Source: Clostridia bacterium (lineage in GTDB: Bacteria > Bacillota > Clostridia > Christensenellales > CAG-138). Taken from it: 64,000 nt of DNA. Of the stretch, positions 12,431 to 57,831 are shown one piece after another. The stretch's first letter is position 1; each line of letters starts with the position of its first letter. The notes beneath the pieces were generated by a model that saw nothing but the letters and a program-made list of their open reading frames with translations, made no database searches and was not told where the DNA came from. The position numbers and the translations under genes were made by a program. The DNA is taken from NCBI GenBank assembly GCA_030527115.1, contig JAUNBM010000001.1:11631-75630 (forward strand). The letters are read 5' to 3'.

Positions 12431-13690
12431 TCATCGCTTAAACAGCTCCAGCTTCCTGTACAGTTTTTTCCGCTTCATTGCATATTTGGCAATCTTTTGA
12501 ACCGACTGCTTCGGTCGCTCGCCCCGCACCGAGCGGTAAAGATAGCGCACAGGAAGATATGCCCAGAATATCGGTAGCAAGATCGGCGCTTTGTTGCAGA
12601 TGGGGAATTGCTTCCTTGCCGCTATGGTTAGATTCCTTGCGGCGGAGGAAAACACGGATCGCTTTTTTAGCGAACTCTCCTCCCCTTTTAAAAAGGTGCT
12701 ACTCACGGCTCGCTCCAAATCCTTGGACATGATATTTCCATTATCGAGTATATCCGCCAAAAGCTCATCCGCCGTCCTTTGTGGCACATTCGCACACCAG
12801 CTGTGCTTTTCCGAATCCAGCCCAAGATATAGAACGCAGATTCTTGTCAGCACACTGGCGAACTGAAAAAGCCGGCATTCTTGAATCGCCGGAAGCAATT
12901 TCTGCTCCATCGTAGCAGGTGAACATGTACCTAAGAACACGCACCAGTCGCATAGTTGCCGCAATCCAATTCCTTCGTTGACCATATGCCGCTCCATATG
13001 GAGGAGTAGAGAAAGAGCTTGATCCGTCTCATTGAGCGCCGGAAACGTATAACCGTCCATTCGAGCGTCCACCGTTCGGAGCGTCGCATCCTCCAATTTT
13101 CTTTTAATCCTCTCCCCTACCGGTAATTCCGGAAATTGCGATATGGCATAATGAAGTTCAAGGTAAGTCCCTGCCCTGTCAAACCCTATGTGAAACTCAT
13201 GCTCCGTTTCATGCATACAATAGCCGGCCGTTTTTAGCGTTTCAATCGCCCTATCGCATTGATCTGCCCGCACGAGTATGTCAATATCTCCCAAAGCGCG
13301 CATCTCAGGTTTCGGATATAGTCTCGCTAAGCTTGCGCCCTTTAAAATGGCGCAAGGAATACTTGCAGCTTCAAACATGGAAACGACTTCCGCCTGCGAA
13401 TGCATCAATCGCTCATTGTTCATAATCGCTGCAAGCGTAAGACTTTTCCAGGCAGTAACCAGGGCGTCAGGCGGCCTGTGCGCAGCATCCAAAGCCATAG
13501 CCGCCTGGAGAATCAGCGGCAATACGGCATGTTTTCTCGCTATCCTGTCTATTTCTTGCCAGCTCGTAAGCTGGGGCAAGACGTCAAAACGCGTATCGGT
13601 GATCGAGCATGCCAGTAGCCGAAGCGCCGCAATTTCGTGCTGGCTCATGTTGCTTCTAAAGCTTTTCTGTTTTCGCCTTGAATCTACCAT
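12431..13690 (-). CDS. Uncharacterised nucleotidyltransferase-fold protein (NTP_transf_5-like), paralog 1
   Basis: LGDIDILV nucleotidyltransferase-type motif. Collinear similarity along the whole length to ORF 38013..39245 (e.g. DQALSLLLHMERH.VN.GIGLRQLCDWCVF.G in both). An alternative start is ATG 13648. Confidence 0.6.
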   Translation of the reverse strand: MVDSRRKQKSFRSNMSQHEIAALRLLACSITDTRFDVLPQLTSWQEIDRIARKHAVLPLILQAAMALDAAHRPPDALVTAWKSLTLAAIMNNERLMHSQAEVVSMFEAASIPCAILKGASLARLYPKPEMRALGDIDILVRADQCDRAIETLKTAGYCMHETEHEFHIGFDRAGTYLELHYAISQFPELPVGERIKRKLEDATLRTVDARMDGYTFPALNETDQALSLLLHMERHMVNEGIGLRQLCDWCVFLGTCSPATMEQKLLPAIQECRLFQFASVLTRICVLYLGLDSEKHSWCANVPQRTADELLADILDNGNIMSKDLERAVSSTFLKGEESSLKKRSVFSSAARNLTIAARKQFPICNKAPILLPIFWAYLPVRYLYRSVRGERPKQSVQKIAKYAMKRKKLYRKLELFKR

Positions 13691-13740: not shown

Positions 13741-14105
13741 TTAGCTTCCTTTCCGCCACACCATCTTATTTACCACGCCGGTATAGCTCTGGATGAGCTT
13801 AACCACCTTCGTACTTACATTCTCGTCCAGATAGTCCGGCACGGGAATGCCATAATCCTTGTCCCGATTCAGTTCAACCGCCGTTTCCACAGCTTGAAGC
13901 AGGCCCTTTTCGTCTATTCCGGCGAGTATAAAGCAGGCCTTGTCGAGCGCTTCCGGACGCTCCGTGGAGGTGCGAATGCAAACCGCAGGGAAAGGATGGC
14001 CAACGCTTGTGAAGAAACTGCTTTCTTCCGGAAGCGTGCCGCTGTCCGACACGACGCAAAAAGCGTTCATCTGCAGGCAATTATAGTCGTGGAAGCCCAG
14101 CGGCT
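13741..14105 (-). pseudogene. 3' stub of an fnlC/capG-type UDP-sugar 2-epimerase gene (last ~120 codons only)
   Basis: ORF 13741..14070 translates to MNAFCVVSDSGTLPEESSFF...VVNKMVWRKGS, essentially identical to the C-terminus of the complete gene at 16344..17513. There is no N-terminal two-thirds. Confidence 0.85.
13751..14105. repeat. Direct repeat copy A (355 nt) of the fnlC 3' end
   Basis: Aligns base for base with 16348..16702. I count about 10 mismatches by eye and no indels. Confidence 0.85.
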
Positions 14106-14435
14106 TAGTTGCGCAATTATCCCGCTCTCATGGCTCTCTTGCCTTTTTCTGAGCCGCCATTATCGAGCATCTCCAACGGCCTCTGTTTGCTGTTCCCCTT
14201 TTTGCCCTTTTGGGCGGGAAAGGAGCTTCTAAGCCTTGTGATGTAAGCGTTTAACCGCTTGCGCCGCCAACTTTTCTTTAAGAGCCTAAAGACATCTCGC
14301 CATTAGCGCCCTCAGTAAAACCTCCGCAATGCCACGATCAACGGCTTTGTCCGGAAAGGTTCCGACTCTTCGCCTTTTGAGTATCGCTCCCCTCGTTACC
14401 GTTTCTCGTCTTCGACTTTATTGCGCTTAATCGGT

Positions 14436-15665
14436 CTACATCCCCCGCTTTTTGCACTCGCGCTCAATAAGTTGTGCGACCTCTGGCGGCAATACGGTAT
14501 TTGCGCTCATTTGCCTTAGCACGGCAAGCGTTTCGTCGGGCATACAGGCATACTCGTTCGGGTCTGACAGCATTGCCATCAAATCATCGAATTCCTCCGC
14601 TGCTTCCTCCTGATCCCCAAATAGCTCCGTCAAGCCGTATCTGGCCTCCTCCAGTAAGGGCAGGCGCTTCCTCTTTGCGAGTGTAGCCCCCAACTGCGGC
14701 GCGAGCTTCTTGAAGAACGCCTTCGCCCTATCGTTTAATACGAAGATCTTTTCGGGTTTCCCTGTGCTCATGGCAGTATTTATGACGCTACTGATTAGTG
14801 CCGCTTCGTCGCTTAGCTCCTTTACCACTTCCACGCCCAGCATCTTTCCCGATTCATTGTTCACTATCAGAAGCAGGTACGGAAAATACGGCGCGGATAT
14901 GGGATTCTCAACGATGTTCCCGACCGCCTCCTCGTCGGAAATCGCCTCCAAATGCATAAAAATATCGCAGGCCCATACTCCGCCCTTTTTATTGCATTGG
15001 CCGAGTTTTGCGAGAGCTATATCGTCCGTTATCTCCGGACTTGGATATACCGGCTTGCGCGGCGGCCCGAGCGCTATCGTCTTCCATACAAACGCTCCGT
15101 TTTCCCTTTCTATCAACGGGATCGACCTGTCGTAAGGCGCGCCTTCCGTGAACCCGAGCTCTTCCGGCGCCATTTCCTCCAGTCGCTCGGACACCTCGAG
15201 CGCGGCCTCCATCGCCTCTTTAAGGTGCGTCCGGTCGTTTTCATCGTCCAGTCGCCAAGGATAGTGGTGCGGGCGAAAGCGCTCAAACTGAGGATACGCC
15301 TTCCTGCCCCGCAAAGTTAATCCGCGCGCGTGCATATAGGCGGTTACTTCGTCTATCTCTTGCTCCAGCAACTCGCGTTTGTTCTGAAACGACACCATCA
15401 CGCAGTCCTGCAACAGCGCGTTCTCGTGCTGTTCGATATAGTCCATCTTACTGCGATCGTGCCCCATCGCGCGATACGCATCCAACCCCGTATCGCCGGG
15501 GTATACCGCCAGCGCAAAATGCTCGCCCATCCTCCCCATCACGCAACAGTACCCAATCGTTCCATCCGAATGGCGAACCGCGAATAACTGCGTATCATAT
15601 AGTTCCATCCAGAGCTTCGCCTTCTTAAACTCCAGCGCAAGATCGTAAAGCGTATACGAAATCAT
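14436..15665 (-). CDS. Hypothetical cytoplasmic protein (409 aa)
   Basis: Long ORF with normal amino-acid composition. Its ATG overlaps the upstream membrane-protein stop (ATGA). I recognise no catalytic motif. Confidence 0.6.
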   Translation of the reverse strand: MISYTLYDLALEFKKAKLWMELYDTQLFAVRHSDGTIGYCCVMGRMGEHFALAVYPGDTGLDAYRAMGHDRSKMDYIEQHENALLQDCVMVSFQNKRELLEQEIDEVTAYMHARGLTLRGRKAYPQFERFRPHHYPWRLDDENDRTHLKEAMEAALEVSERLEEMAPEELGFTEGAPYDRSIPLIERENGAFVWKTIALGPPRKPVYPSPEITDDIALAKLGQCNKKGGVWACDIFMHLEAISDEEAVGNIVENPISAPYFPYLLLIVNNESGKMLGVEVVKELSDEAALISSVINTAMSTGKPEKIFVLNDRAKAFFKKLAPQLGATLAKRKRLPLLEEARYGLTELFGDQEEAAEEFDDLMAMLSDPNEYACMPDETLAVLRQMSANTVLPPEVAQLIERECKKRGM

Positions 15666-17513: not shown

Positions 17514-18712
17514 TCTACCACCTCAAAAAAAGTATCGGGATGATTGGGGTCGAACTGTTCGTTTGCCCACATGACGGTGACGAGGTCTTCCGTCTCACTT
17601 AGGTTAATTATATTATGCGTGTAACCCGGAAGCATATGGACTGCCTCTATTTTATCACCGCTCACCTCGAAATTCAACACTTCATCCGTCCCGATTTTGC
17701 GCATTTGAATAAGCCCGCGCCCAGCAACCACTATGAATAGCTCCCACTTGCTGTTGTGCCAATGCTGTCCCTTGGCGATTTTAGGCTTGGAGATGTTCAC
17801 GCTGAATTGCCCACATTTTTGAGTTCTAAGCAATTCGGTAAAGCTGCCGCGCACATCCTTGTTCATTTTTAGCGGGAACGACACTTTCGACTCCGGCAGA
17901 TAGGACAGGTAGGTGCTGTAAAGCTTTTTGGCAAAGCTGTTATTCGGCGTCTCCGGCATAACAAGGGTTTGCGGCTGGGCTTTAAAGGATTCGAGCAAAT
18001 CGGCAATCTCACCGAGCGTAACCCTATGCGTAGTGGGGACAAAGCAATATCTGCCATTCGGGGTTTGGCTTGGAATCAAGCCCTCGTATTCGCAATGATG
18101 CTCCTTCCCCTCGAGCGCATCGAGCATCTCGGCAACGAGGTCGTCGATGTAGAGCAACTCCAGCTCCGTCGTGCGATCGTTTATCTGAATGGGCAGATCG
18201 TTTGCAATGTTATGGCAGAATGTTGCGACAGCGCTGTTGTAGTTCGGGCGGCACCACTTTCCAAACAGGTTCGGGAAGCGGTACACCAGCACCGTTGAGC
18301 CGGTCTCCTCTCCATATCGAAAGAACAGCTCCTCCCCCGCCTTTTTGCTCTTACCATATTCACCTTCGGAGTATCTGCCTATCAGCGTAGCCTGTATGGA
18401 GGACGAAAGCATGACCGGGCAGGGGTTGCCATGCTTCTTCAGCGTGTTTAGCAGGGTCGATGCAAAGCCGAAATTGCCCTCCATAAACTCTCTCGGCTCC
18501 TTCGGTCGGTTCACGCCCGCAAGGTTATAGACAAAATCCGCCTTCTTGCACGCCTCGTTCAGCAGTTCGATGGGCGAGTCGATATCATATTCATATATTT
18601 CCCCAATCGCCAGCTCCGGTCGGGTTCTGTCCTTGCCGTCTCGGATATTTTTAAGAGTGCAAACGAGGTTTTTCCCGACAAAACCGGCGGCGCCGGTGAT
18701 TAGAATGTTCAT
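17510..18712 (-). CDS. fnlB: FnlB/CapF-like bifunctional SDR reductase with C-terminal cupin domain
   Basis: MNILITGAAGFVGKNL Rossmann N-terminus, plus a C-terminal ~120 aa cupin-like segment (GQHWHNSKWELFIVVAGRG). 400 aa, matching the two-domain CapF architecture. Confidence 0.8.
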   Translation of the reverse strand: MNILITGAAGFVGKNLVCTLKNIRDGKDRTRPELAIGEIYEYDIDSPIELLNEACKKADFVYNLAGVNRPKEPREFMEGNFGFASTLLNTLKKHGNPCPVMLSSSIQATLIGRYSEGEYGKSKKAGEELFFRYGEETGSTVLVYRFPNLFGKWCRPNYNSAVATFCHNIANDLPIQINDRTTELELLYIDDLVAEMLDALEGKEHHCEYEGLIPSQTPNGRYCFVPTTHRVTLGEIADLLESFKAQPQTLVMPETPNNSFAKKLYSTYLSYLPESKVSFPLKMNKDVRGSFTELLRTQKCGQFSVNISKPKIAKGQHWHNSKWELFIVVAGRGLIQMRKIGTDEVLNFEVSGDKIEAVHMLPGYTHNIINLSETEDLVTVMWANEQFDPNHPDTFFEVVE

Positions 18713-19767
18713 ATGCCGTCCTCACGCTCAGCCAGTTTGTCGCGAATAAACTGCAAACTCATCAGCTTCTCCTTGACCTGCTCGACATTCAAAAGCCGTG
18801 TATTGCTACTGTTGAACTCCGTCAAAACATTTCGCTCGATATCGCCTTGCTTGAAATACTTGTCATAGTTCAGGTCACGCTTATCGCATGGCACCCGGTA
18901 AAAATCACCTAAGTCATAGGCGTGTGCGCACTCCTCGTTAGTAAGGAGAGTTTCATACATCTTCTCGCCATGGCGTATTCCTATAATCCGGGCTTCCTCC
19001 TTGGCGTCGAATAATTCCCCGATAGCCTGAGCCAAAACGCCTATCGTGCAAGCAGGAGCTTTCTGCACCAGAATATCCCCGCTCACTCCGTTTTCAAAGG
19101 CGAATAGCACCAGATCCACCGCCTCGTCCAGGGACATAATAAAGCGCGTCATGTTTGGATCCGTGATCGTGATGGGCTTGCCGGCCTTAATCTGATCAAT
19201 CCAAAGAGGGATAACCGAGCCCCGCGAACACATTACGTTTCCGTATCTGGTACAGCATATTTTCGTCTTTTTGGTTGTCCTCGACTTGGCTACAACGACC
19301 TTTTCCATCATGGCCTTGCTCGTCCCCATCGCGTTGACGGGATATGCGGCCTTATCCGTAGAAAGGCAAATGACCGTCTTGACTCCTTCATCGATGGCGG
19401 CGGTGAGCACATTGTCCGTTCCAATTACATTGGTCTTGACCGCTTCCAACGGAAAGAACTCACAGCTCGGCACCTGCTTGAGTGCCGCCGCATGGAATAT
19501 GTAATCCACACCGTGCATAGCGTTCTTAACTGACGCCAAATCGCGCACATCCCCAATGTAAAAGGTTATCTTGTCCGCGACCTCGGGCATAGACACCTGT
19601 AAACTATGGCGCATATCGTCCTGCTTCTTTTCATCGCGGGAAAAGATGCGGATCTCTCCGATATCCGTCGTCAGGAAACGGTGAAGCACCGCGTTCCCAA
19701 ACGACCCGGTACCGCCGGTGATTAGGAGGGTTTTGCCGTGAAACCACGCGCTATTGTCTTCTCTCAT
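18709..19767 (-). CDS. fnlA: UDP-GlcNAc 4,6-dehydratase/5-epimerase (FnlA/CapE-like)
   Basis: GKTLLITGGTGSFGNAVLHRFL..EIRIFSRDEKKQDDMR closely resembles S. aureus CapE as I remember it. I use in-frame ATG 19767; the listed start 19779 is a GTG. Confidence 0.85.
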   Translation of the reverse strand: MREDNSAWFHGKTLLITGGTGSFGNAVLHRFLTTDIGEIRIFSRDEKKQDDMRHSLQVSMPEVADKITFYIGDVRDLASVKNAMHGVDYIFHAAALKQVPSCEFFPLEAVKTNVIGTDNVLTAAIDEGVKTVICLSTDKAAYPVNAMGTSKAMMEKVVVAKSRTTKKTKICCTRYGNVMCSRGSVIPLWIDQIKAGKPITITDPNMTRFIMSLDEAVDLVLFAFENGVSGDILVQKAPACTIGVLAQAIGELFDAKEEARIIGIRHGEKMYETLLTNEECAHAYDLGDFYRVPCDKRDLNYDKYFKQGDIERNVLTEFNSSNTRLLNVEQVKEKLMSLQFIRDKLAEREDGI

Positions 19768-19779
19768 TTCCCATTTCAC

Positions 19780-19984
19780 TCCCTATAGTATATTCATAAT
19801 AATGTTGCAAACAACCTCTACCGTTTTCATTCCTATGCGGATGCATGGGGAGGTGTAGCATTTGTCGTGCCGTTGAGATGGTGCTGAGATGTCTTTCATT
19901 CAGCACAAGCGGCAAAATGACCTTATCTTCCAAACGCTTGATGTATCCGTTCACCACTCGGTTCATCGCTTTCGGCGCATACAT
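19780..19984 (-). pseudogene. Possible remnant of an rve-type (DDE integrase-core) transposase C-terminus
   Basis: YAPKAMNRVVNGYIKRLEDKVILPLVLNERHLSTIS...MHPHRNENG loosely follows the transposase pattern P.A.N..ER....L..E.....VLNERHL.......YN..RPH. It has no N-terminal part and sits at a composition boundary. Confidence 0.3.
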
Positions 19985-20214
19985 CGTTTATCCTTGAGTT
20001 TTTGATTGGATTTACAAAGGAGTCTCTAATAATCTTCTTCTGTCAGTTCTCCGCTGATCATCGGATACAACTTTAACCATTTTACTACGACGTGCATAAC
20101 CGGTTCATTTCATTGCCTAACAACTTATTCTACAGGCACACATCCTCATTAACCTGTTTCACGTCGTCTTTATTCTATAACTCCTACTGCGTGTATTCTA
20201 ACTCATTTTTCATC

Positions 20215-20487
20215 TTAATCTGTGTTCTTTGTCTCATTGCTTTCCATAGTAAGGGCTTTTTTCTTGCTCAGGTACATACCAACCAACCCGCAACCAATGA
20301 AGATGGATGTGAATTTGATTACCCAAGGAAAATACTCCTGCAGAATCACTTGGCATATTTCTGTAGCTGTATCGCCGCCAATAACCATTGCCGCGATATA
20401 TCCGAGTACCGTTATTCCACCAGCGAATAAGGCAATTATAACCCCTATACTAAAGACTGTGTTAAACACATTTGCTATTTTTTTCAT
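20215..20487 (-). CDS. Small membrane protein (90 aa), unknown function
   Basis: ATG start and two to three hydrophobic helices. It lies 18 nt downstream of the DctM-like gene. Confidence 0.4.
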   Translation of the reverse strand: MKKIANVFNTVFSIGVIIALFAGGITVLGYIAAMVIGGDTATEICQVILQEYFPWVIKFTSIFIGCGLVGMYLSKKKALTMESNETKNTD

Positions 20488-20505
20488 TTCATTCTACCTC
20501 CTCCA

Positions 20506-21852
20506 TCAAAGTCCCATAATTGGGAGCAAGCCAAGAAGGCATAAAACTGACAAGATATAGTGGCATCCTATCCACACAAGGCAGTTTTTCGTTGTCTCTT
20601 TCATGCCTGCCCCGGCAATACCCATAGCCGTATACATGCAAAGCGCAAGCGGAGGAGTCATCCCCTCCATCGCTCCGGTGATAACGGGAAGCATAGCAGC
20701 GACTAAAAGCGGATTTCCACCGGCCGCCGCAAAAACTGAAATGATTGTTACACCAAATATCTTTGTCTGTGCTGAACCCGGCAATACCATTCCAAGTATT
20801 GCTGTTATCAGCGGTATGATGAAGGCGAGTGCAACATTCGGAAGGTTCCAGCTTTGAATGAATATACCTATCTGTGCGCCCACATCAGTTGCAGCAAAAA
20901 GATTACTAATGCAATAGGCAAAAAAGATTGTCGTCGCAACAGGGACAACACCAGTAACAGAACTCTTAATCGTCTCAACCATCTCTTTAGGCTTCGGCTT
21001 ATTCTTTGCTACTATGAGAGCATATATTGCGGCTAAACCCGGCGTGAACAGCAATAGACTGCTCGAAAGATTCCCCGCTCCCGTGCCAAGTCTTGCTGTA
21101 AAGAACGTACTCTTGAAGAAATAATCCAGAACAAACGGGAGAAGAATAACAACGGGCAGAAATAAGTTTTTCCAGCCAGCTTTCAATGTTTCTTTTATGC
21201 TGGGAATATCTTCCTTTTCCATTGGCTTAACTTTGTAAACTCGGCAGAAAATATACATAGTTACAATTCTCTGTAGGATGAACCATAATGCAATGCCCCA
21301 GCAGACAATCCAGAATGTCGATTGAGACATTTCAGCTCCGCTGAACTCATTGTAACATGCCAAGGCAGCGACGATAACTCCAGCAGGCGGTATCATGTTG
21401 CCCATTGTGGAAGATGATGCCTCAACATTTGCCGCAAGATGGGCGGGGAATCCCGATTTTTTCATCGCTGGAATTGTAAACACTCCTGTAGTCGCAACAT
21501 TACCTGCGCCAGAACCTGACAATGCCCCCATAAACGTAGACCCAATTATCGCTGTATACCCTGCGCCTCCGCGCAGACGCCCGAATATAGAGCAGATAAT
21601 GGCTACAACAGTGTCAACCGCATGTGTTGCATCAAGTATTTTTGCTAAAACTAAAAATGCAACAATGGCATAGAACAGCGTGTCGGTGGATGTTTTGCCT
21701 ATGTAGGTGAAAAAGTTCGACCATTCACCGGTGCAGATAATCATTAGAACGTACCCATAGAACATGCACTCGTAAATAGGTCTCCTAAACACCAAAAACG
21801 CAACGCAAATCACCGCTAACAGCCCAAGAATATAAAATACTTCAATCGGCAT
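20506..21852 (-). CDS. TRAP-transporter large permease (DctM-like)
   Basis: 448 aa and polytopic. GALSGSGAGNVATTGVFTIPAMKKSGFPAHLAANVEASSSTMGNMIPP matches the conserved DctM loop. There is no DctP and no normal-size DctQ adjacent. Confidence 0.7.
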   Translation of the reverse strand: MPIEVFYILGLLAVICVAFLVFRRPIYECMFYGYVLMIICTGEWSNFFTYIGKTSTDTLFYAIVAFLVLAKILDATHAVDTVVAIICSIFGRLRGGAGYTAIIGSTFMGALSGSGAGNVATTGVFTIPAMKKSGFPAHLAANVEASSSTMGNMIPPAGVIVAALACYNEFSGAEMSQSTFWIVCWGIALWFILQRIVTMYIFCRVYKVKPMEKEDIPSIKETLKAGWKNLFLPVVILLPFVLDYFFKSTFFTARLGTGAGNLSSSLLLFTPGLAAIYALIVAKNKPKPKEMVETIKSSVTGVVPVATTIFFAYCISNLFAATDVGAQIGIFIQSWNLPNVALAFIIPLITAILGMVLPGSAQTKIFGVTIISVFAAAGGNPLLVAAMLPVITGAMEGMTPPLALCMYTAMGIAGAGMKETTKNCLVWIGCHYILSVLCLLGLLPIMGL

Positions 21853-21876
21853 TGTATTCCCTCTCTCTCCTTCTTT

Positions 21877-22941
21877 TTATTCAAGCAATTCGGGATTGAA
21901 TTCTCTCCCATTTGCTCTAAAATCATTGTCAAGTACAGCGCTCGCTAAGTCGATGATGGCTGTAATATTCGGTACTGTAATGCCACAGTATTTTGCGGCA
22001 TTTTCTATTGGAACTAAGCCGCAAGGCACATCCTCCAAAAGATATCGGTGATGAAGAGTCCTCGGCGCATCGATTTCTTTGTACGCCTCGGTTGTTCTTA
22101 TACAAGAGTGAAAATCGTCGCCTTTAGCTCCGTATGTACGCTTCAACCATTCTTGCGTAGACTCGATATCATATCCCAACGCATGAGCAACAGAAAGCCG
22201 TTCGCTATCAACTTTTTCCAGAAAACGTGCCACGCTTGGAGATATGCCATCGTAATAGTATTTGAAATCAACCTTCGGTGTTTCTATCCAGCCGATATTC
22301 ATAAGAACAGGGGCACAGTGCAACACCATGCCGACGTTGGAGAGTGATGTAATAATTACGGACTCGGTCGGGACAAAATAGTTCCTCAAGCATTTTGGCA
22401 TTCTTGATAGTATCAAGTCTATATCAGATGATTTAATGGCAGCAATTTTTACATCGTGTTTCAGCGCATATATCACGGTGCTGTTCTTGTCACTCCGGCG
22501 ACATGTATAAACAATAGTTTGTGTCTCTGCGATATGCGGCATCTCTTTTACTCCGCAGTCTTTCAAAGTCCGAGCAAACTCTATTGCACCGAACGTCCTG
22601 CCGGGGTTTAGAACAATTACCATTTCCTTATGCACATATGGTGCTAAAGCTCTTGCAACATCTTTATGTGCACTACTCGGCGTTGTAACCATCACAAAAT
22701 TTGAGACTACCTCTGCGATATTGGATGAGGCCTTTTCAATAACTGCCGTACCGTTGACGATACCGGAGCACTCGATTTGATGCGATTCAATCACGTCAGC
22801 TATATTCTCGGGCGTTCTATTCCACAACGTCACAGTTACACCGGACAAAGCCAGATGAGCGGCCATTGACAGGCCTTGATGTCCTCCCCCGCAGACAAAT
22901 ACCTCTTCTGTTGGCTTATCGGCTATGCTGATATTAACCAT
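21877..22941 (-). CDS. NAD(P)-dependent octopine/nopaline (opine) dehydrogenase-family protein
   Basis: VFVCGGGHQGLSMAAHLALSGVTVTLWNR Rossmann N-terminus. The C-terminal YYYDGISPSVARFLEKVDSERLSVAHALGY resembles the opine-dehydrogenase C-terminal domain. ATG 22941 overlaps the upstream stop (ATGGTTAA); the listed start 22962 is TTG. Confidence 0.7.
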   Translation of the reverse strand: MVNISIADKPTEEVFVCGGGHQGLSMAAHLALSGVTVTLWNRTPENIADVIESHQIECSGIVNGTAVIEKASSNIAEVVSNFVMVTTPSSAHKDVARALAPYVHKEMVIVLNPGRTFGAIEFARTLKDCGVKEMPHIAETQTIVYTCRRSDKNSTVIYALKHDVKIAAIKSSDIDLILSRMPKCLRNYFVPTESVIITSLSNVGMVLHCAPVLMNIGWIETPKVDFKYYYDGISPSVARFLEKVDSERLSVAHALGYDIESTQEWLKRTYGAKGDDFHSCIRTTEAYKEIDAPRTLHHRYLLEDVPCGLVPIENAAKYCGITVPNITAIIDLASAVLDNDFRANGREFNPELLE

Positions 22942-24562
22942 TATTCGCGTCCAAGTGGGCAAGACGTGCCGCTTCGCTCAACACACCCTTTGTCTGTTTA
23001 TCATAAGCTACACAGGCGCCGTTAGCAAAGGTTGTGTGCAAATCTCCTTTGAACTTATCCCCCTTAACAATGTGAACAGTATCCATATATCCCTTCTTTA
23101 CAACATCGACAAGAATAACCGGATTCATTAACGGGTCTGAATCATATGAATACTTGTTGCGTATGAAATCCAACAACACCCTCGCCTCAGAAATAAGCTC
23201 TTCTTTCCGAGCAGCAATTCTTTCGTCCTTCTCCATTGAGAACTTATCTCCCAATGTGTGCCTGATAACGCCCTTCACTATCTTACAGCTTTCAATTATC
23301 TCTTCCGCTCCCGCCGCATGGTCCGCCTCACAGTACCCGACAACGTGTATGATATGCGGTTTTACCGCCATCTGCATAAATGTGGAAGCCGCAAGCTGCC
23401 CTTTTGCCACATAGGGGTCGGCGTTGAACAGGGGCAGTCCCGCTCGAGTCTGGCGGTATGTTTTAAAACTGTCATCTTCCAGGCTTTCCACCATTTCAAT
23501 CATTGCAAGTACTCTGGCATAGTCCATTGAGAACGAGATGCCGTTGGGATTGTTGAACATATATTGTGCGATGTAGTTCTTCACACCGAGCTTCTTAGCG
23601 TTATAAGCGGCTATATAAGCGGCTGCAACCGGTATTACATCGTGTGCATCTCGAAGTCCCCAGTGATGCGGCTCATTGAGTTCAACGGGGACGTTGCGCT
23701 CAGCGTGCCAATGGATGAGCTCCTGTGCCTCCTTGACGGATACCTCTATCGGCCTCGTCCCGCGACCATCCATTTCGTTATACCAAAAGAGCGGAATTGC
23801 CGTCCATGCGTTATCAATCGTTCTGAGAAGAGTATCGGCATACTTGAACACATCTGCTGTTCCGCTATAACAGCGCATAAGAGGGAAATTTCCGCGCTTC
23901 GATGCCTCCTTGAGTCGCCGAAAATCATCTTCTGACCTTATAGGCACACCGCCTGCGCCGTCAAATTCCTTTTGCATATGTTCTTGGTCAAACAGATACT
24001 GCTGCGCATTCTGGTCAGGCCCGAGGGAGACAACATCCAACACCTTCGCATTAGATACTTTCTTAACAGCGTCTACCGTTGCATCCATTGTGGGCAAGCC
24101 CAAGTGATGTCGCAGTATCGGGTATGGGTAGGACTTCTTTATCCGCTCCATAAGCGTTGCGCCATAGCTGTCAGCGCCTTCAATCTTATTATCTCTGCGC
24201 AAAAATCTGATTGAATCATTGATGTCGTCGAAGCCATCTGAGATGAATGAGAATAGACCGTATCTCGTCGCCACATCCGCCACGGGCTTTGTTCCGCCAA
24301 AGACCCAGACGGGGGAATAGTCAAGCCTATCCGCTCTTTCCTTAACTTCATCCAGCAGAGAAATAACATTCGCCGGAGTCAATCGATAGCTAATTCCTAT
24401 CATGTCCGGACGAAATAAGTGTATCTCTTCAAATAATTTGTCTATTGGGACTGCAGGTCCCATAAACCGGCATTCGTATCCTTCTTCTTCAGCAAGCTGA
24501 AGAAAATGATACACACCCGCAACATGGACACAGTTGCCAATGGATGCACCTAATAACTTCAT
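22934..24562 (-). CDS. B12-binding-like (flavodoxin-fold) domain fused to a large C-terminal domain of unknown function
   Basis: The N-terminus LLGASIGNCVHVAGVYHFLQLAEEEGYECRFMG..DMIGISYRL follows the layout of cobalamin-binding domains, but the DxHxxG motif reads NCVHVAG (Asp missing). I cannot place the remaining ~400 aa. AAGGAG lies 8 nt upstream of ATG 24562. Confidence 0.55.
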   Translation of the reverse strand: MKLLGASIGNCVHVAGVYHFLQLAEEEGYECRFMGPAVPIDKLFEEIHLFRPDMIGISYRLTPANVISLLDEVKERADRLDYSPVWVFGGTKPVADVATRYGLFSFISDGFDDINDSIRFLRRDNKIEGADSYGATLMERIKKSYPYPILRHHLGLPTMDATVDAVKKVSNAKVLDVVSLGPDQNAQQYLFDQEHMQKEFDGAGGVPIRSEDDFRRLKEASKRGNFPLMRCYSGTADVFKYADTLLRTIDNAWTAIPLFWYNEMDGRGTRPIEVSVKEAQELIHWHAERNVPVELNEPHHWGLRDAHDVIPVAAAYIAAYNAKKLGVKNYIAQYMFNNPNGISFSMDYARVLAMIEMVESLEDDSFKTYRQTRAGLPLFNADPYVAKGQLAASTFMQMAVKPHIIHVVGYCEADHAAGAEEIIESCKIVKGVIRHTLGDKFSMEKDERIAARKEELISEARVLLDFIRNKYSYDSDPLMNPVILVDVVKKGYMDTVHIVKGDKFKGDLHTTFANGACVAYDKQTKGVLSEAARLAHLDANNG

Positions 24563-24577
24563 ATATTAGTCTCCTTT

Positions 24578-24664
24578 TTAATAACATTTGCGGTTCAAGA
24601 CGGCGTTCCCAAACGACCCGGTGCCGCCGGTGATCAATAGGGTTTTGTTTGTAAAATACGACAT
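24578..24664 (-). pseudogene. Orphan 5' stub (28 codons) of a CapE/FnlA/PseB-type dehydratase gene
   Basis: Reverse-strand translation is MSYFTNKTLLITGGTGSFGNAVLNRKCY-stop. AAGGAG lies upstream, directly after the rmlB stop. Positions 24603..24647 match fnlA 19691..19735 with 4 mismatches in 45 nt. Confidence 0.7.
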
Positions 24665-24675
24665 AATGAGCTCCT

Positions 24676-25701
24676 TTACCTATTTCCGTACATCTGCTGG
24701 TAATAATTCTGATACTCGCCCGATATGATTGTTCCCCACCACGACCTGTTGTTCAGATACCATTGAATCGTCAATTTAATGCCCTCCTCAAACTTAGTTT
24801 CGGGAAGCCACCCAAGCTCATTATGGATCTTTGTCGGGTCAATAGCATATCGCAAATCATGGCCTTTTCGATCGGTGACATATGTAATCAGGCTTTCCGG
24901 TTTACCAAGTTCTTTGCAGATTAGCCTGACTATATCAATGTTGCGCATCTCATTGTGGCCCCCGATGTTGTATACCTCACCTGCTCTGCCATTATGAATG
25001 ATTAAATCTATCGCCTTGCAATGGTCTTTAACATACAGCCAGTCCCGCACATTCAGTCCTTCTCCATATACGGGCAAGGGCTTGTCGTTAAGACAATTTG
25101 CAATCATCAGCGGAATGAGTTTCTCGGGGAAATGATAAGGCCCGTAATTATTCGAGCAACGGCTTATGGTTACCGGTAATCCATAGGTTCTATGGTAAGC
25201 AAGGGCAAGAAGATCCGCTGCGGCCTTCGAGGAGCTGTACGGACTGCTTGTATGAATCGGCGTTTCCTCCGTAAACAGCAGATCGGGACGGTCAAGCGGC
25301 AGATCTCCGTAAACCTCATCCGTACTCACCTGATGGAAGCGCTCAATTCCGTATTTGCGGCAAGCGTCCATCATCACCGCTGTTCCCATAATATTCGTTT
25401 CAAGAAAGACCCCGGGATTTTCTATGCTTCTGTCAACGTGGCTTTCCGCCGCAAAGTTGACAACGATGTTCGGCTTTTCTTCCTCAAATAGCCTGTATAC
25501 AGCATCACGGTCGCAGATGTCCGCCCTAACAAAACGAAACTGCGGATTATCCATAACCGATGAAAGCGTTGCAAGATTGCCTGCGTAGGTCAGCTTATCC
25601 AGACAAACGATACGGTAGTTCGGATATTTATCAAGCAGGTAGAAAATGAAATTTGAACCGATAAACCCTGCGCCACCGGTAACAATCAGAGTCTTATTCA
25701 T
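24676..25701 (-). CDS. rmlB: dTDP-glucose 4,6-dehydratase
   Basis: [18 protein letters not shown] start at ATG 25701, overlapping the rmlA stop (ATGA). [11 protein letters not shown] active-site YxxxK. The 72 extra N-terminal codons of the listed ORF overlap rmlA. Confidence 0.92.
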
Positions 25702-26585
25702 GCTCTCAACGCCTCCTTGGCCAATGAAATAAGGTACTGTCCATAATCCGTCATACTCAATTCCTCCCCAATCGACATCAGTTGCTCCGTCGATATGAAT
25801 TTGCGCCGCCACGCAATTTCCTCTATGCAAGAAACATAAAAGCCCTGTCTGGACTGAACCGCCTCCACAAACTCCGCCGCTTTCAGCATTCCATCCGGAC
25901 TGCCGGTATCCAGCCATGCAACTCCTCGGCCCAGAAGCTGAACATGGAGCTTGCCCTTCGCAAGATAGGCATTGTTTACGGCTGTGATTTCGATTTCACC
26001 GCGGGCGGAGGGCTTGACGTTCTTAGCAATCTCAATTACACGGTTATCATAGAAATAGAGTCCCGGAACGGCGTAATTTGACTTTGGATTTTCCGGCTTT
26101 TCTTCAATGCTGACGACCTTATGCTCCCTGTCAAATTCCACCACGCCGAAGCTCCTCGCATCTTTGACCGGATATCCGAAGATGCAAGCTCCTTCGTTGT
26201 CTTCAACTTTCTTTATCGCATTCCACAAAGTCCTCGAAAGGTCTTGACCGTAGAACACATTGTCACCAAGAATAAGGCATACCGAGTCAGACCCGATAAA
26301 CTCCTCGCCGAGTATGAAGGCGTCTGCAAGCCCGCGCGGACTGTTCTGCACCTTGTACGAGAAGCTGACGCCTATTCTCGAACCATCTCCAAGCAAGCGT
26401 TCATATACAGGCGTGTCCTCCGGCGTGGAAATAATCAGTATTTCTCGGATGCCTGCCAAGAGCAGCATGGATAAAGGATAGTAGATAAGCGGCTTGTCGT
26501 AAATCGGCAAAAGCTGCTTTGAAACGGCCTTTGTTATCGGGTAAAGTCGAGTACCCTTTCCCCCGGCTAAGATAATGCCCTTCAT
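25698..26585 (-). CDS. rmlA: Glucose-1-phosphate thymidylyltransferase
   Basis: [39 protein letters not shown] is the canonical RmlA N-terminus. Confidence 0.92.
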
Positions 26586-26605: not shown

Positions 26606-27715
26606 TTATTTTAATATTAGCTCACATATCCTATCGACATCTTCGAGCGCGAGGTCGGCATACAGCGGGAGCGTGAGAACACGCTCTGCGATACGTGTGG
26701 CAATCGGCGTTCTTTCTCCGCCGGCGGTCGGATAATCCTTGTAAGCCGTTGTTGTATTAATCGACGGATAGAAATATTTGCGGGCGGTGATGCCCTGTGC
26801 CAGCAGACGATCGCAAATCTCATCCCGGGTATATTTATAGCCGTCAAAGACGGCCGGAAAATACGCATAATTGGATATGACGTCCGGTTGCGGTTGGTTG
26901 AGGATGATGCCGGTCGTGCTGCTAAGCCGTTCACGGTATCTTTCGCAAACTCGTTTGCGTTTGGCAATCTCGTCTTTCAAGTGACGAAGGTTACATAGCC
27001 CCATTGCCGCTTGAAACTCGTTCATTTTAGCGTTTCCGCCAATGTAATTCACATCCTCTTGACTTTGGATGCCGAAATTCTTATAAGCGTCGCACAGCGA
27101 AACCAGCTTGTCATCCGAATAGCAAACCGCACCACCCTCTATGGTATGGAACACCTTAGTTGCATGAAAGCTGAACATGGATGCGTCGCCAAAGCACGCT
27201 GAGCTGACGCCCTTATAGGTCACACCGAAAGAGTGCGCCGCATCATAAATTACTTTTAATTTGTGCCTGTCCGCAATGCGCTTGATTTCCTCCACATCGC
27301 ATAGATTTCCATAAACATGAACCGGAACGATTGCCGAGGTCTTTTTCGTAATCAGAGCTTCGATTTTTGTTGTATCTATGGTGTAATCGACCGGGTTGAT
27401 ATCGCAGAAAACAGGCGTCAATCCGCAGCGCACTATCGCATGTGTGGTTGATGCAAAGGTGAAAGGCGATGTGATAACCTCACTTCCGCGGGGCAACTGC
27501 ATTGCGGTAATAATATTCTCAAGCCCCAGATGACCGTTTGCGTACAGGGTGACATGAGGGACGCCCCAATATTTCTCAAGCTCCTCCTGAAGCTGACGGT
27601 GTTTCGCTCCCATGTTGGTCAGCCATCGGCTATCCCATAATTCTTTTATTTCCGCACAGTATTCCTCGAAAGAGGGCATCGATGAACGGGTTACCTGTAT
27701 TTTTTCTCTGTTCAT
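26606..27715 (-). CDS. DegT/DnrJ/EryC1/StrS-family sugar aminotransferase (probably acts on dTDP-4-keto-6-deoxyglucose)
   Basis: 369 aa. The [16 protein letters not shown] region, DAAHSFG and [14 protein letters not shown] (PLP lysine) motifs are present. Substrate is inferred from adjacency to rmlA/rmlB and the absence of rmlC/rmlD. Confidence 0.8.
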
Positions 27716-27737: not shown

Positions 27738-29015
27738 TTACAAAAGTCCGTACAGCAAAACCAAACATACCCAAGCCGTTACAAGGCCAATTATGCCAAT
27801 CAGACCGCCTATTTTGAAGTAGTCCTTAAAGCGATAGCCTGCAACTTGAACCATTGTAACCGATGTTGTTGCTGCCGGCGTTGCCATTGCTAAACTTGCA
27901 CCAAACACGCATGCCATAGCAATCGGCATCGGATTGCACCCAACTTCAATTGCCATTGGGATTCCGACTGCCGCCAACATGGATACAAGGGAACCGTTTG
28001 ACATAAACAGCGAAAGCACGTAACCCGAGACAAGGAACAAGGTAACTAACACAATGGGATTTGCAACCCCTTCCCCCAGAATGTCTACAAGCCAGTTGAT
28101 AATACTCTCTCCGACACCGGAATTTACAAAGCCTTTCGCAATCCCAAGGGCGGCTCCAAGGGTCACTATCGCAGGCCAAAACATATTTTTCAAAGCCTTC
28201 TTGCCATCCACGCACTTGGTCATTATAAGAATAAGGGCACCCGTTATTGCTATCTGTCCTAACTCCCATCCGAACGGCTGAATCACAAAGAGGATTGCAC
28301 ATACAATGAAAATTGTAATCGATATGCCTGCTTTTCTCTTATTGATTGGAACATCGCTTACATTTTGTTCCGATTCTTCTGATACTTCTTGAAAGTCAAA
28401 GCACTTCACTTGCACCTTGTAAAGGAAAGTCATATAGCAAACTGCTATTACCGCAACAATTGAAAATGCAATCGGGAAGGTTTCAAAAAACCCCATGGTC
28501 TCTGCGCCTACCTCGGCAAGCACATTATTTGCCAGCAATGGGGCGGTGCTTCCCGCAAGAGTTCCCGTTCCCCCTATTAGGCCTCCCGCAGCAAGGGGTA
28601 AGTATGTGTTCTTCTTGGTAATTCTGCCTCCCGATGTTGCAGCAACGGAGGCAATGAACGGCATGAACATAGCTACCAGAGATGCATTTGTCATAAACAT
28701 CGAAAGTACGGCAGCAAGCAGAAAGACTACAACTACAAATGTTTTCTCCTTTTTCCCAACATATTTTGTCAATACTTTCCCAATCTTTCCCCCAATGCCG
28801 CTTTCCAATAAGGCATTGATGATTATCACCATGCCAATAACAAGCAATACCGCAGTGTTTGTAAACCCGGAAAATGCTTCTGCAGGGGTTAATATGCCTG
28901 CATAAACCATCGCTAACATTCCGACCGTCGTCGTTACTGCAACGGGAAAAATCTCAAGCACATATAATAAACATGTGCATCCAACTATAATTAATGCAAT
29001 TGTGCTGTTGTCCAT
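27738..29015 (-). CDS. SLC13/DASS (ion-transporter superfamily) solute permease
   Basis: 425 aa and polytopic with a two-fold internal arrangement. The FTNTAVLLVIGMVIIINALLESG and SMFMTNASLVAMFMP / SLFMSNGSLVSMLAA hairpin-like SN-motif repeats are typical of DASS/CitMHS-like permeases. Confidence 0.7.
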   Translation of the reverse strand: MDNSTIALIIVGCTCLLYVLEIFPVAVTTTVGMLAMVYAGILTPAEAFSGFTNTAVLLVIGMVIIINALLESGIGGKIGKVLTKYVGKKEKTFVVVVFLLAAVLSMFMTNASLVAMFMPFIASVAATSGGRITKKNTYLPLAAGGLIGGTGTLAGSTAPLLANNVLAEVGAETMGFFETFPIAFSIVAVIAVCYMTFLYKVQVKCFDFQEVSEESEQNVSDVPINKRKAGISITIFIVCAILFVIQPFGWELGQIAITGALILIMTKCVDGKKALKNMFWPAIVTLGAALGIAKGFVNSGVGESIINWLVDILGEGVANPIVLVTLFLVSGYVLSLFMSNGSLVSMLAAVGIPMAIEVGCNPMPIAMACVFGASLAMATPAATTSVTMVQVAGYRFKDYFKIGGLIGIIGLVTAWVCLVLLYGLL

Positions 29016-29026
29016 AGCTTATTCTC

Positions 29027-30316
29027 CTAAAAAAACAATCTATTTGTGTCAAATGGCTTGAACAGCATGTTATTTCCATGTACATCTGTAACAACAATAC
29101 TCCGCTGAGCTTCTTTGATATACTCAGCAATCTCATCCAAAGAAGTTCCACTTAGTTTGACAAATATGCCACGGCGCTGGGTTGAATCATCACTTGATAT
29201 TGACTTGCCCACCTCCACATACGAGTGAATGCCATCAACCCAATCTTTGTCTTGGAGCGCAGAATAATCGACCTCACCTATCGTTCCCTCGTTCAGGTAT
29301 GTACACAGAGTACACAGATATCTTCCAAAGTGCGCTCTTTCTTTCTTTAGATCATCTCCCATACTGCCCGTGAGCGAATAACTGATAAGCATCTTCATAT
29401 AGTTGATGCCGTTATATTTCTCAATCACCCTACAATCATTATTGCCATTGAGCCTGTACCCCATTTCAAAAATCTTTACCCCCTGCTCGTTAGCAATTCC
29501 TTGGAAGAAGGCGACACCATTTTTTACACCAATGTTGCTTAAAAGCTCCTTGATTTGTACATCTATATTTTCCACATACATTTCATAATATCTTGAAGGG
29601 GCCAGCACAATATCGCAAAGTCCTGATATCCTTTCGTGATCTTGAGAAATGAATTTCTCGCTCAAACTCGACAGGCTGATTTCCCCATTCGCAACGGTGT
29701 AAATTGCCATTAACTCAGTCCCGACAACATACTCTTCGCAAATGATGGACTGACTATCAGAGTACTGCAGCGCATATTCTATCGCTTCATTTAATTGTTC
29801 TTCGTTGTAACATACTGTTATTCCTTTACACCCTGCGTAGTCTGTAGGTTTCACGATTACAGGATAGATAACGAGTTGTTTTTCTTCTTCTGTTAGTGGT
29901 TTTGAAAAGCAGTAATCCTTTGCTACAGGAATACCGTGCTTAAGACAAAGGTCTTTGAAGCTTCGCTTGTTGCGAGTTATATTGACTTGCTCTTCTGTCG
30001 CATAAAATGGCGTTCCAAGTGCTGCCGCTATCTTTGCGGCGAAAAGGACCTTAAATTCACTATATCCCGCCATAACGCCGGAAACACCGTTAAGGCGACA
30101 CTTTTCTACTACCTTGTCGATGTTCGAGTAATCGTCACACCATACTTCGTCTGCCATATACTTTGCATACGCAGTTGTTATATCAGCATTTCTGCCGATG
30201 AGAATCACATAGACCCCCATCTCGTGAGCGGCTTCTATGAGCTCCTCATATTCTTCTATACCTACTGCAAGAAGCTTTTTCCCTTTACATTTCTCGTAAC
30301 CGAAGTGTTCTTTCAT
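29027..30316 (-). CDS. ATP-grasp domain ligase, paralog 1
   Basis: 429 aa. Pre-ATP-grasp Rossmann-like N-terminus, YPVIVKPTDYAGCKGITVC, and EMGYRLNGNN (Mg/ATP loop region). Collinear with ORFs 31904..33187 and 52628..53902. Confidence 0.75.
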   Translation of the reverse strand: MKEHFGYEKCKGKKLLAVGIEEYEELIEAAHEMGVYVILIGRNADITTAYAKYMADEVWCDDYSNIDKVVEKCRLNGVSGVMAGYSEFKVLFAAKIAAALGTPFYATEEQVNITRNKRSFKDLCLKHGIPVAKDYCFSKPLTEEEKQLVIYPVIVKPTDYAGCKGITVCYNEEQLNEAIEYALQYSDSQSIICEEYVVGTELMAIYTVANGEISLSSLSEKFISQDHERISGLCDIVLAPSRYYEMYVENIDVQIKELLSNIGVKNGVAFFQGIANEQGVKIFEMGYRLNGNNDCRVIEKYNGINYMKMLISYSLTGSMGDDLKKERAHFGRYLCTLCTYLNEGTIGEVDYSALQDKDWVDGIHSYVEVGKSISSDDSTQRRGIFVKLSGTSLDEIAEYIKEAQRSIVVTDVHGNNMLFKPFDTNRLFF

Positions 30317-39245: not shown

Positions 39246-39250
39246 TTGCT

Positions 39251-57754: not shown

Positions 57755-57760
57755 GGGCGC

Positions 57761-57769
57761 ATTATAGCA
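57761..57769 (-). promoter_or_regulatory. Extended -10 element (TGcTATAAT) immediately upstream of the NusG-paralog ATG (possible leaderless mRNA)
   Basis: Minus strand reads TGCTATAAT-gcgccc-ATG. No Shine-Dalgarno lies between the -10 and the ATG, and the -35 is weak. Confidence 0.35.
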
Positions 57770-57799
57770 GAATAATTTTGCTTTGCACAGAGCATAATA
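57770..57799 (+). promoter_or_regulatory. Forespore sigma-F/sigma-G-type promoter upstream of spoVAD
   Basis: GAATA, 18 nt, CATAATA fits the GHATR-N17/18-CATnnTA consensus as I recall it. The GGAGGA RBS (57815..57820) and ATG 57832 follow. Confidence 0.5.
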
Positions 57800-57831
57800 G
57801 CAAAAATTCCGTATGGAGGAGCAAAACAACC

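Follow-up and report, generated by a model that had tools for sequence, protein, structure and literature searches.

The cassette and its setting

Positions 20215-24562 of a 64-kb stretch of DNA from a Clostridia bacterium (contig JAUNBM010000001.1; the whole stretch is called the window below) hold a cassette of four genes embedded in a polysaccharide locus (Table 1). In the order in which they are read, these genes encode a 542-amino-acid protein with an N-terminal vitamin B12-binding domain, an opine-dehydrogenase-family enzyme (ODH), a DctM large permease, and a 90-amino-acid membrane protein. A preliminary description of this DNA had reported four same-strand genes at this position, and the genes are indeed intact and, like all genes of the cassette region, located on the minus strand. 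Their spacing is operon-like, with an 8-nt overlap followed by gaps of 24 and 18 nt. Pfam was run on essentially all open reading frames (ORFs) of the window with at least 150 amino acids. The analysis below centers on the first two genes, the mutase-like gene and the ODH gene, which recur side by side in other genomes. Loci sampled from other genomes are cited by L numbers and individual relatives of the 542-amino-acid protein by P numbers.

A B12-binding domain fused to a predicted mutase barrel

The only Pfam match of the 542-amino-acid protein is to the B12-binding domain (residues 2-95, 39 bits), an N-terminal Rossmann domain that carries the motifs GNCVHVAG, SYRL, and FGGT. The cobalamin motif had been described as degenerate (NCVHVAG), and the sequence reads as stated, with GNCVHVAG being invariant among close relatives. 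When the domain is set against the signature DxHxxG...SxL...GG, the His, the Gly, and the GG are kept, SxL reads SYRL, and an invariant Cys stands in place of the Asp (G[ND]CVHVAG). The profile of this domain matches the small subunits of mutases, as well as methionine synthase and corrinoid proteins.

The remaining ~400 residues had been left unassigned, with a profile and structure search proposed to identify them. Searches of the PDB with the 542-amino-acid sequence and two family profiles matched only the B12 domain, nothing was returned for the protein from NCBIfam, and neither Pfam nor NCBIfam models the barrel described here. An AlphaFold2 model built on 26 homologues (predicted local distance difference test score 83, predicted template-modeling score 0.85) was then the basis for a Foldseek search. 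The best matches were to glutamate mutase E (6h9e_B/1cb7_B; E 7.7e-14, template-modeling scores 0.59/0.65, 454 aligned columns), followed by ornithine 4,5-aminomutase and lysine 5,6-aminomutase (E 3.7e-10 to 4.8e-9), methylmalonyl-CoA mutase, and 2-hydroxyisobutyryl-CoA mutase. By its predicted fold, the formerly unassigned region is the barrel of an adenosylcobalamin isomerase, a TIM barrel like that of glutamate mutase E, and it follows the B12-binding domain. From this model we conclude that the 542-amino-acid protein would work like a class-I B12 carbon-skeleton mutase, with a substrate that is either other than glutamate or bound differently, and we infer that it is cobalamin-dependent.

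Relatives of the protein occur both as natural fusions and beside genes of cobalamin metabolism. In a search of 1.8 billion cluster representatives, three relatives (P0151, P0152, and P0158; 826-1266 amino acids) were found fused to MutL, the glutamate-mutase reactivase. Another (P0135, 863 amino acids) joins the mutase-like region to a RimK/GshB-type ATP-grasp domain and passes the threshold of PF06368 (Met_asp_mut_E), with 27.5 bits against 26.6. A sister subfamily of 632-636 amino acids (phmmer E 5e-50 to the 542-amino-acid protein) has a canonical DxHxxG motif (VDAHTMG) and is encoded directly beside a CobA/BtuR corrinoid adenosyltransferase, within capsule loci.

Within the module, conservation is highest for the mutase-like gene, with 65-89% identity across many lineages and more than 150 invariant positions in the barrel. 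The family to which it belongs is large: it has over 6000 hits, forms 659 clusters at 50% identity, and is matched at least 596 times in species-representative genomes. Databases label it only as "B12-binding domain-containing", apart from one source that names a homologue "methionine synthase". A pyridoxal-phosphate-dependent aminomutase was also considered and rejected, the 30-sequence family alignment containing no invariant or near-invariant Lys.

Several further features were seen around relatives of the 542-amino-acid protein. The relative P0133 (732 amino acids) has a weak Peptidase_M15-like tail. Two close relatives have a small, cysteine-rich PF04071 ("zf-like") gene right before the mutase gene (L008 7735-7995 and L089 9569-9940); no gene of this type was found in the 64-kb window. 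The sister module (L094 8747-11144 and L096 4585-6986, also L097 and L098) comprises ODH, the mutase-like gene, CobA/BtuR, DctM, the small protein, a sugar transferase, and two ATP-grasp genes. The capsule locus L094 also holds, at 13811-14923, a gene of the alanine-dehydrogenase/PNT family, which includes N5-(carboxyethyl)ornithine synthase; this gene could be a second opine-type synthase.

The opine-dehydrogenase-family enzyme

The assignment of the second gene to the octopine/nopaline dehydrogenase family was borne out by a strong match to PF02317 (166 bits, cut-off 30; profile positions 3-149 of 150) and by full-length similarity to N-(1-D-carboxyethyl)-L-norvaline dehydrogenase (CENDH) of Arthrobacter (1bg6, E 1.5e-57). 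The N-terminal NAD(P)-binding Rossmann domain (Pfam, residues 21-118) contains a GxGxxG motif in which G27 and G30 are invariant (79/79). His215, Arg306, and Asp311 align to CENDH His202, Arg292, and Asp297, the catalytic residues, and are likewise invariant in all 79 mutase-linked homologues. Judged from these features, the gene product is a genuine NAD(P)H enzyme of the opine dehydrogenase family, whose members join a 2-oxo acid and an amino acid by reductive condensation. Translation likely starts at the ATG at 22941 (354 amino acids), which places the 8-nt overlap at the stop codon of the mutase gene.

The mutase-ODH pair across genomes

To survey the pair, one genome per species was scanned, and the best 80 of at least 596 relatives were examined. 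An ODH homologue is directly adjacent to the mutase gene in 72 of these 80 loci, with the mutase gene first in 18 and the ODH gene first in 54. Where the ODH gene comes first, its stop codon overlaps the start codon of the mutase gene by 1 or 4 nt in 37 of 48 loci. The pair is present in Clostridia, Tissierellia, Thermoanaerobacterales, Bacteroidota, Ignavibacteriota, Chloroflexi, and Asgard archaea, and in the distant groups it is free-standing among unrelated housekeeping genes.

An ATP-dependent amide ligase adjoins the pair in ~22 loci, being AsnB-like in 12 and a Ddl-like ATP-grasp beside the ODH gene in ~10. Gene neighborhoods of this kind indicate that the pair is usually accompanied by an ATP-dependent amide-forming enzyme. 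The pairs flanked by AsnB-like genes belong to Thermoanaerobacter, Bacteroidota, Ignavibacteriota, and Chloroflexi, and the AsnB-like glutamine amidotransferase gene lies directly downstream of ODH-mutase (L028, L029, L058, L067, L068, L070, L074, L075, L078-80, and L085). This arrangement suggests that the product of the pair may be amidated where an AsnB-like gene flanks it. In Tissierellia, the pair is found near genes for 2-oxoacid:ferredoxin oxidoreductase (POR) and Ptb/Buk. An operon shared with these genes was considered and rejected, as gaps of 300-750 nt identify them as syntenic neighbors only.

Close relatives in glycan loci

All 13 informative metagenome loci of close relatives are capsule or flagellin-glycosylation loci. 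Relatives with at least ~58% identity lie in glycan loci in L002-8, L010-12, L014, L089, and L092/93, and the exceptions among the sampled contexts at this level are L009, L013, and L090/91. The expectation that the gene set travels with polysaccharide loci therefore stands for close relatives and fails for the distant members of the pair, which are found outside glycan loci. The sampled glycan contexts include a flagellin glycosylation island in Clostridium sp. FAM 1755 (L006/L011) and capsule loci in metagenome-assembled genomes (MAGs) of Christensenellales, Adlercreutzia, Lachnospiraceae, and Faecalimonas. In L090 and L091, which carry a 77%-identical relative, mutase-ODH is followed by a pyrroline-5-carboxylate-reductase-family gene (3148-3957 and 3476-4285, respectively) and then by housekeeping genes; no glycan genes are visible in these two loci, and the upstream flank is cut off.

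A set of six genes, encoding an ATP-grasp ligase, the mutase, ODH, a DegT aminotransferase, RmlA, and RmlB, recurs in these contexts, and the ATP-grasp gene is usually directly upstream of the mutase gene. Orthologues of RmlA, RmlB, and DegT adjoin the module in L006/L011, L012, L101/102, L108/109, and L112. The DegT protein of the window is 60-66% identical to module-linked DegT proteins, and its nearest solved relatives are DesI (2po3) and perosamine synthases. On the basis of these similarities, RmlA, RmlB, and DegT are the probable source of an acceptor sugar, dTDP-4-amino-4,6-dideoxyhexose. The ATP-grasp ligase nearest to the cassette (29027-30316) is not orthologous to the module-linked ATP-grasps found elsewhere. 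This gene and a second ATP-grasp gene (52628-53902) are alternative candidates for the ligase that would attach the product. PDB searches with two of the ATP-grasp proteins gave generic matches only, and some module-linked ATP-grasps match a PylC-like N-terminal domain.

The DctM permease and its small partner

The match of the permease to PF06808 spans profile positions 2-408 of 413, and its closest model is the M part of TAXI-type fused permeases (TIGR02123). Among the annotated ORFs of the 64-kb window, Pfam matched no DctP, TAXI, or DctQ protein, in agreement with the earlier statement that the DctM gene has neither a DctP nor a normal DctQ and is followed only by a 90-amino-acid ORF. The hydropathy profile of the latter shows two hydrophobic segments, and an 86-91-amino-acid homologue comes after DctM in all contexts that were examined (L012, L092-98). 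The order mutase, ODH, DctM, small protein recurs in a Faecalimonas MAG (DctM 80% and small protein 60% identical) and in another capsule locus (77% and 51%), and the position of the cassette within the locus differs each time. DctM copies with 77-80% identity come after mutase/ODH in L012 and L092/93, and such copies are also present with the sister module in L094 and L096-98. Identity ranges from 77 to 95% among the top 120 DctM homologues, and with a single exception these have 446-449 amino acids. Together, DctM and the small protein look like a conserved two-component transporter of Clostridia that works without a binding protein, has a general role, and is sometimes recruited to modules such as this one. 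DctM is probably an importer of a carboxylate precursor. On a Ruminococcaceae contig (L095 7001-8617), a DctM gene (447 amino acids) and a gene for an 86-amino-acid protein stand alone among the housekeeping genes murB and pheST.

Borders and composition of the cassette

The fnlA-type stub proposed as one border of the cassette exists as an ORF that encodes MSYFTNKTLLITGGTGSFGNAVLNRKCY*, has its own AGGAG ribosome-binding site, and corresponds to the first ~25 residues of an FnlA/CapE-type dehydratase before it is truncated. A 57-nt direct repeat with 84% identity links the stub (24591-24647) to the 5' end of the intact fnlA-like gene (19679-19735), 4.9 kb away. Because the two copies of the fnlA 5' end bracket the cassette, the arrangement bears the signature of a recombinational insertion. 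GC content is 0.40-0.48 in the cassette and 0.51-0.54 in the fnl block, and GC at third codon positions (GC3) is 0.43-0.51 and 0.63-0.68, respectively. With rmlB at 0.46 and the upstream genes of the locus at 0.42-0.46, close to the cassette in GC, the compositional step is confined to the fnlA side. The cassette is thus AT-richer than the fnl block, as had been claimed, but not than rmlB. Read together, the stub, the direct repeat, and the GC3 step clearly mark the cassette, at the level of sequence, as an insertion, with the stub as its apparent upstream junction.

At the other border, the presumed transposase-like remnant (19780-20214) found no support: this spacer has no Pfam hit, no match in a plasmid collection, and no recognizable transposase frame, only broken reading frames. 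A metagenome scan for the empty site, in the form of an fnlA gene starting MSYFTNKTLLITGG..., found none.

The surrounding polysaccharide locus

The polysaccharide locus extends from ~55.9 kb to ~12.4 kb, with a DegT gene, an initiating sugar transferase gene, and a NusG/KOW-like gene at its head. As the preliminary description had stated, four ATP-grasp genes and a uronic-acid pathway are part of it, along with a Wzx flippase, a weak Wzy-like match, and glycosyltransferases. The listed 413-amino-acid ORF for RmlB (24676-25917) carries a spurious N-terminal extension of ~72 residues that overlaps the end of rmlA; the true start is the ATG at 25701 (341 amino acids).

Table 1. Features in and around the cassette, in window coordinates
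Feature	Position	Strand	Basis or remark
Second candidate ATP-grasp ligase	52628-53902	-	41-46% identical to module-linked ATP-grasps of L007, L094, and L096
ATP-grasp ligase	29027-30316	-	Pfam ATP-grasp families; nearest solved structures include L-amino-acid ligase 3vot; nearest ATP-grasp to the module
CitMHS-type permease (citrate-transporter family, ion-transporter superfamily)	27738-29015	-	154 bits; between ATP-grasp and DegT
DegT-type C4 aminotransferase	26606-27715	-	Pfam DegT 329 bits; nearest solved structure DesI 2po3, E 6.8e-59
RmlA	25698-26585	-	TIGR01207 460 bits (cut-off 361)
RmlB	24676-25701	-	TIGR01181 487 bits (cut-off 365)
fnlA-type stub, 28-codon ORF	24578-24664	-	Translation and alignment to fnlA 5' end
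542-amino-acid fused mutase-like protein	22934-24562	-	Pfam B12-binding; AlphaFold2 and Foldseek
Opine-dehydrogenase-family gene (ODH)	21877-22941/22962	-	PF02317; 1bg6
DctM large permease, 448 amino acids	20506-21852	-	PF06808 175 bits
90-amino-acid membrane ORF	20215-20487	-	Hydropathy; no Pfam family
435-nt spacer	19780-20214		Broken reading frames and a 77-amino-acid ORF without family; downstream cassette junction
Full-length FnlA-like gene	18709-19779	-	Downstream of spacer

Just ahead of the gene that opens the ~43-kb polysaccharide locus is the NusG/KOW-like gene (57254-57829, minus strand), whose position suggests processive antitermination of one long operon. A scan of the region for promoters and terminators returned hits at chance level only. 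A minus-strand gene at 44565-45638 encodes a D-glucuronyl C5-epimerase C-terminal domain (159 bits). Next to it are a UDP-sugar dehydrogenase gene, a 2-epimerase gene, and a WbpB/E/D-like set; the combination hints at uronic acids of the iduronic or 2,3-diamino type. With the CitMHS permease and DctM, two carboxylate-type importers are encoded within one glycan locus. The locus also includes two paralogous NTP_transf_5 ("uncharacterised nucleotidyltransferase") genes (12431-13690 and 38013-39284, minus strand) and a gene for a DUF7309/DUF6930 protein (14436-15665). Elsewhere in the window, a SpoVAD gene and glycoside-hydrolase flanks point to a spore-forming gut Firmicute as the host. Given such a host, the polymer would be a capsule or wall glycopolymer rather than an O-antigen.

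Proposed pathway and alternatives

Based on the data presented above, we consider it probable that the cassette reached its capsule or wall-polysaccharide locus by horizontal transfer and serves there as a tailoring module. Its product would be a rearranged amino acid, probably of the N-carboxyalkyl type, in amide linkage to a 4-amino-4,6-dideoxyhexose or a uronic acid. In the pathway that we envisage, DctM and its 90-amino-acid partner would import a small carboxylate precursor. The 542-amino-acid protein would then act on an amino or dicarboxylic acid, which is probably not glutamate in the GlmE binding mode, and catalyze its radical 1,2-rearrangement with adenosylcobalamin as cofactor. ODH, probably in a complex or tightly coupled with the mutase, would perform an NAD(P)H-dependent reduction at a 2-oxo-acid or imine center and yield a non-proteinogenic amino acid of the N-(carboxyalkyl) or another type; the order of the mutase and ODH steps, like the product, is conjectural. 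Finally, as the conserved gene neighborhood suggests, an ATP-grasp enzyme may amide-link the acid to the 4-amino group of dTDP-4-amino-4,6-dideoxyhexose, or to a uronic acid of the repeat unit. Since a radical isomerase is conserved in the module, the substituent is probably not a plain known opine.

Several observations weigh against this proposal. The Asp of DxHxxG is replaced by Cys in the 542-amino-acid protein, the protein itself has no PF06368 match in Pfam, and neither a CobA-type adenosyltransferase nor a reactivase was found in the 64-kb window. Alignment to GlmE with hhalign, for which a single sequence and a 16-sequence alignment were used, is collinear and weak (E 0.003-0.015, probability 3-11%), and because of this the superfamily assignment rests on the predicted fold, the fusions, and the neighboring genes. 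In that low-confidence alignment, GlmE Arg66, Arg100, and Arg149 (the arginine claw) and Glu171, which bind the substrate glutamate, fall at His153, Gln187, Tyr232, and Pro257 and are not conserved in place; two other arginines, Arg151 and Arg230, are invariant and precede two of these four positions by two residues. Nor does the ATP-grasp type usually encoded ahead of the mutase have a clear orthologue in the window. Moreover, by a uniform criterion, none of the 54 distant loci (group G3) has sugar genes within 10 kb. As these distant members of the pair lie outside glycan loci, the ancestral role of the pair may be metabolic, with the reactions run in either direction.

A broader proposal, which we advance tentatively, is that the mutase and ODH constitute a previously unrecognized two-enzyme pathway, present in Firmicutes, Bacteroidota, Ignavibacteriota, Chloroflexi, and Asgard archaea, for a new non-proteinogenic amino acid that is amide-linked by ATP-dependent ligases and that gut Clostridia have recruited for decoration of capsule and flagellin.

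The first alternative is close to the model of the preliminary description, in which a keto or amino acid is imported, ODH alone makes an opine of the alanopine or carboxyethyl-lysine type, and an ATP-grasp enzyme attaches it; the B12-like protein would then be an accessory, either a sensor or a relic. The closeness of ODH to CENDH, its intact active site, the missing Asp of the B12 motif, and the precedent of alanopine on Qui4N and carboxyethyl-lysine on GalA as known glycan residues are all compatible with it. However, the mutase-like gene is the best-conserved member of the module, unlike what would be expected of a relic or sensor, it is translationally coupled to ODH in most genomes, and adenosyltransferase or reactivase functions accompany it in relatives. 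We therefore regard this alternative as unlikely. The part of the earlier model that stands is that the cassette is a glycan-tailoring module and not a stray catabolic island; what it omits is an adenosylcobalamin-type rearrangement.

Alternatively, ODH could N-carboxyalkylate dTDP-4-amino-4,6-dideoxyhexose directly with a 2-oxo acid supplied or remodeled by the mutase, which would make an ATP-grasp step unnecessary for this residue. DegT, RmlA, and RmlB are in fact the most constant neighbors of the pair in glycan loci, and DegT often comes immediately after ODH. Yet an ATP-grasp gene directly precedes the mutase gene in most glycan loci, and the 54 ODH-mutase loci that lack nearby sugar genes argue for small-molecule substrates, leaving direct modification of the amino sugar quite unlikely.

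It is very improbable that the cassette is an unrelated catabolic or uptake island, in which an imported acid or opine would be degraded by the mutase and ODH for carbon or energy with no role for the polymer. Such an island would fit the clear insertion (fnlA stub, direct repeat, and GC3 step), the uptake permease, and the occurrence of distant relatives of the pair outside glycan loci, including those of Tissierellia near POR and Ptb/Buk. Against this, the POR genes of Tissierellia are not operon partners at their distance of 300-750 nt, no lyase, thiolase, or CoA-transferase genes accompany the pair, and the close relatives, far from occurring only in catabolic contexts, lie inside glycan loci with ATP-grasp and DegT in almost every independent context and at differing positions.

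The least probable reading, that the 542-amino-acid protein is a corrinoid-dependent methyltransferase of a module for an N-methylated amino-acid substituent (an N-methyl-glutamyl group is reportedly present on a flagellin sugar of Clostridium botulinum), has in its favor the combination of B12-binding domain and TIM barrel seen in MetH/MtaBC-type systems, the match of the B12 profile to methionine synthase and corrinoid proteins, and the homologue named "methionine synthase". Against it, the barrel matches adenosylcobalamin isomerases and not methyltransferase barrels, relatives are fused to the mutase reactivase MutL, and the adenosyltransferase of the sister module would produce adenosylcobalamin instead of methylcobalamin.

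Novelty and implications

Literature searches found no paper that describes the mutase-ODH pair or links these families, and two papers on Clostridium flagellar glycosylation make no mention of cassette-type genes. The superfamilies of the parts and the logic of amide-linked amino-acid decoration are known. What appears to be new is that a B12 isomerase is paired with ODH and that glycan loci use this pair. As far as we are aware, the mutase would be the first adenosylcobalamin isomerase to act in glycan biosynthesis. If the proposal is correct, the structure of a surface glycan would depend on vitamin B12, and the antigenicity of capsule and flagellin in gut Clostridia may depend on B12 supply and scavenged acids. 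It would also assign a fold and probable cofactor to a large family that carries only a domain label, reveal an enzyme pairing of radical isomerase and opine-type dehydrogenase, and provide a genetic candidate for unusual amino-acid-type substituents on 4-amino-4,6-dideoxyhexoses, such as those of opine-bearing Providencia antigens. Clostridium sp. FAM 1755, in which the module is part of the flagellin glycosylation island, offers a cultured, fully sequenced test organism.

Comparison with known systems

The closest structural counterpart of the 542-amino-acid protein is glutamate mutase GlmS/GlmE of Clostridium cochlearium (1cb7, 6h9e), with which it shares a B12-binding Rossmann domain and, according to the model, the same TIM-barrel fold. 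The adenosyl-ribose glutamate also appears to be retained, GlmE Glu330 falling at the conserved Glu412 in the low-confidence hhalign alignment. In contrast with glutamate mutase, whose GlmS and GlmE are separate subunits, the 542-amino-acid protein is one fused chain with the B12 domain first, and it has CxHxxG in place of DxHxxG and lacks the PF06368 match. Glutamate mutase is encoded with mutL followed by methylaspartase, whereas the window has neither MutL nor methylaspartase and the constant neighbor is ODH.

The sequence of reactions proposed here resembles, by analogy only, that of pyrrolysine biosynthesis by PylB, PylC, and PylD, where a radical mutase produces a branched amino acid, an ATP-grasp enzyme forms an amide, and a dehydrogenase completes the product. 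PylB is, however, a radical-SAM and not a B12 enzyme, and PylD does not belong to the ODH family. Regarding transport, the membrane domain of the cassette DctM is closest to the M part of the TAXI-type fused permeases of tripartite ATP-independent periplasmic (TRAP; DctPQM) and TAXI-TRAP systems. Unlike those systems, the cassette encodes no binding protein or DctQ, and the protein of 86-91 amino acids with two hydrophobic segments is the constant partner instead.

ODH resembles CENDH in full-length homology, two-domain architecture, and the catalytic His, Arg, and Asp. It differs from CENDH and other opine dehydrogenases in that the cassette-type enzyme is encoded beside a B12 mutase-like gene and usually an amide ligase gene too; we know of no opine dehydrogenase that works with a radical isomerase. 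With respect to the product, the nearest parallels are the opine-bearing O-antigens of Providencia, which the preliminary description had mentioned and which the literature confirms: alanopine is carried by Qui4N in P. alcalifaciens O35, and N-epsilon-(1-carboxyethyl)lysine is attached to GalA in P. rustigianii O14 (review PMC10609480). The cassette locus likewise sets RmlA, RmlB, a C4 aminotransferase, and uronic-acid genes beside an opine-dehydrogenase-type gene and amide ligases. It differs in belonging to a spore-forming Firmicute instead of a Gram-negative O-antigen system and in including a mutase, and given the mutase, the substituent is likely something other than plain alanopine.

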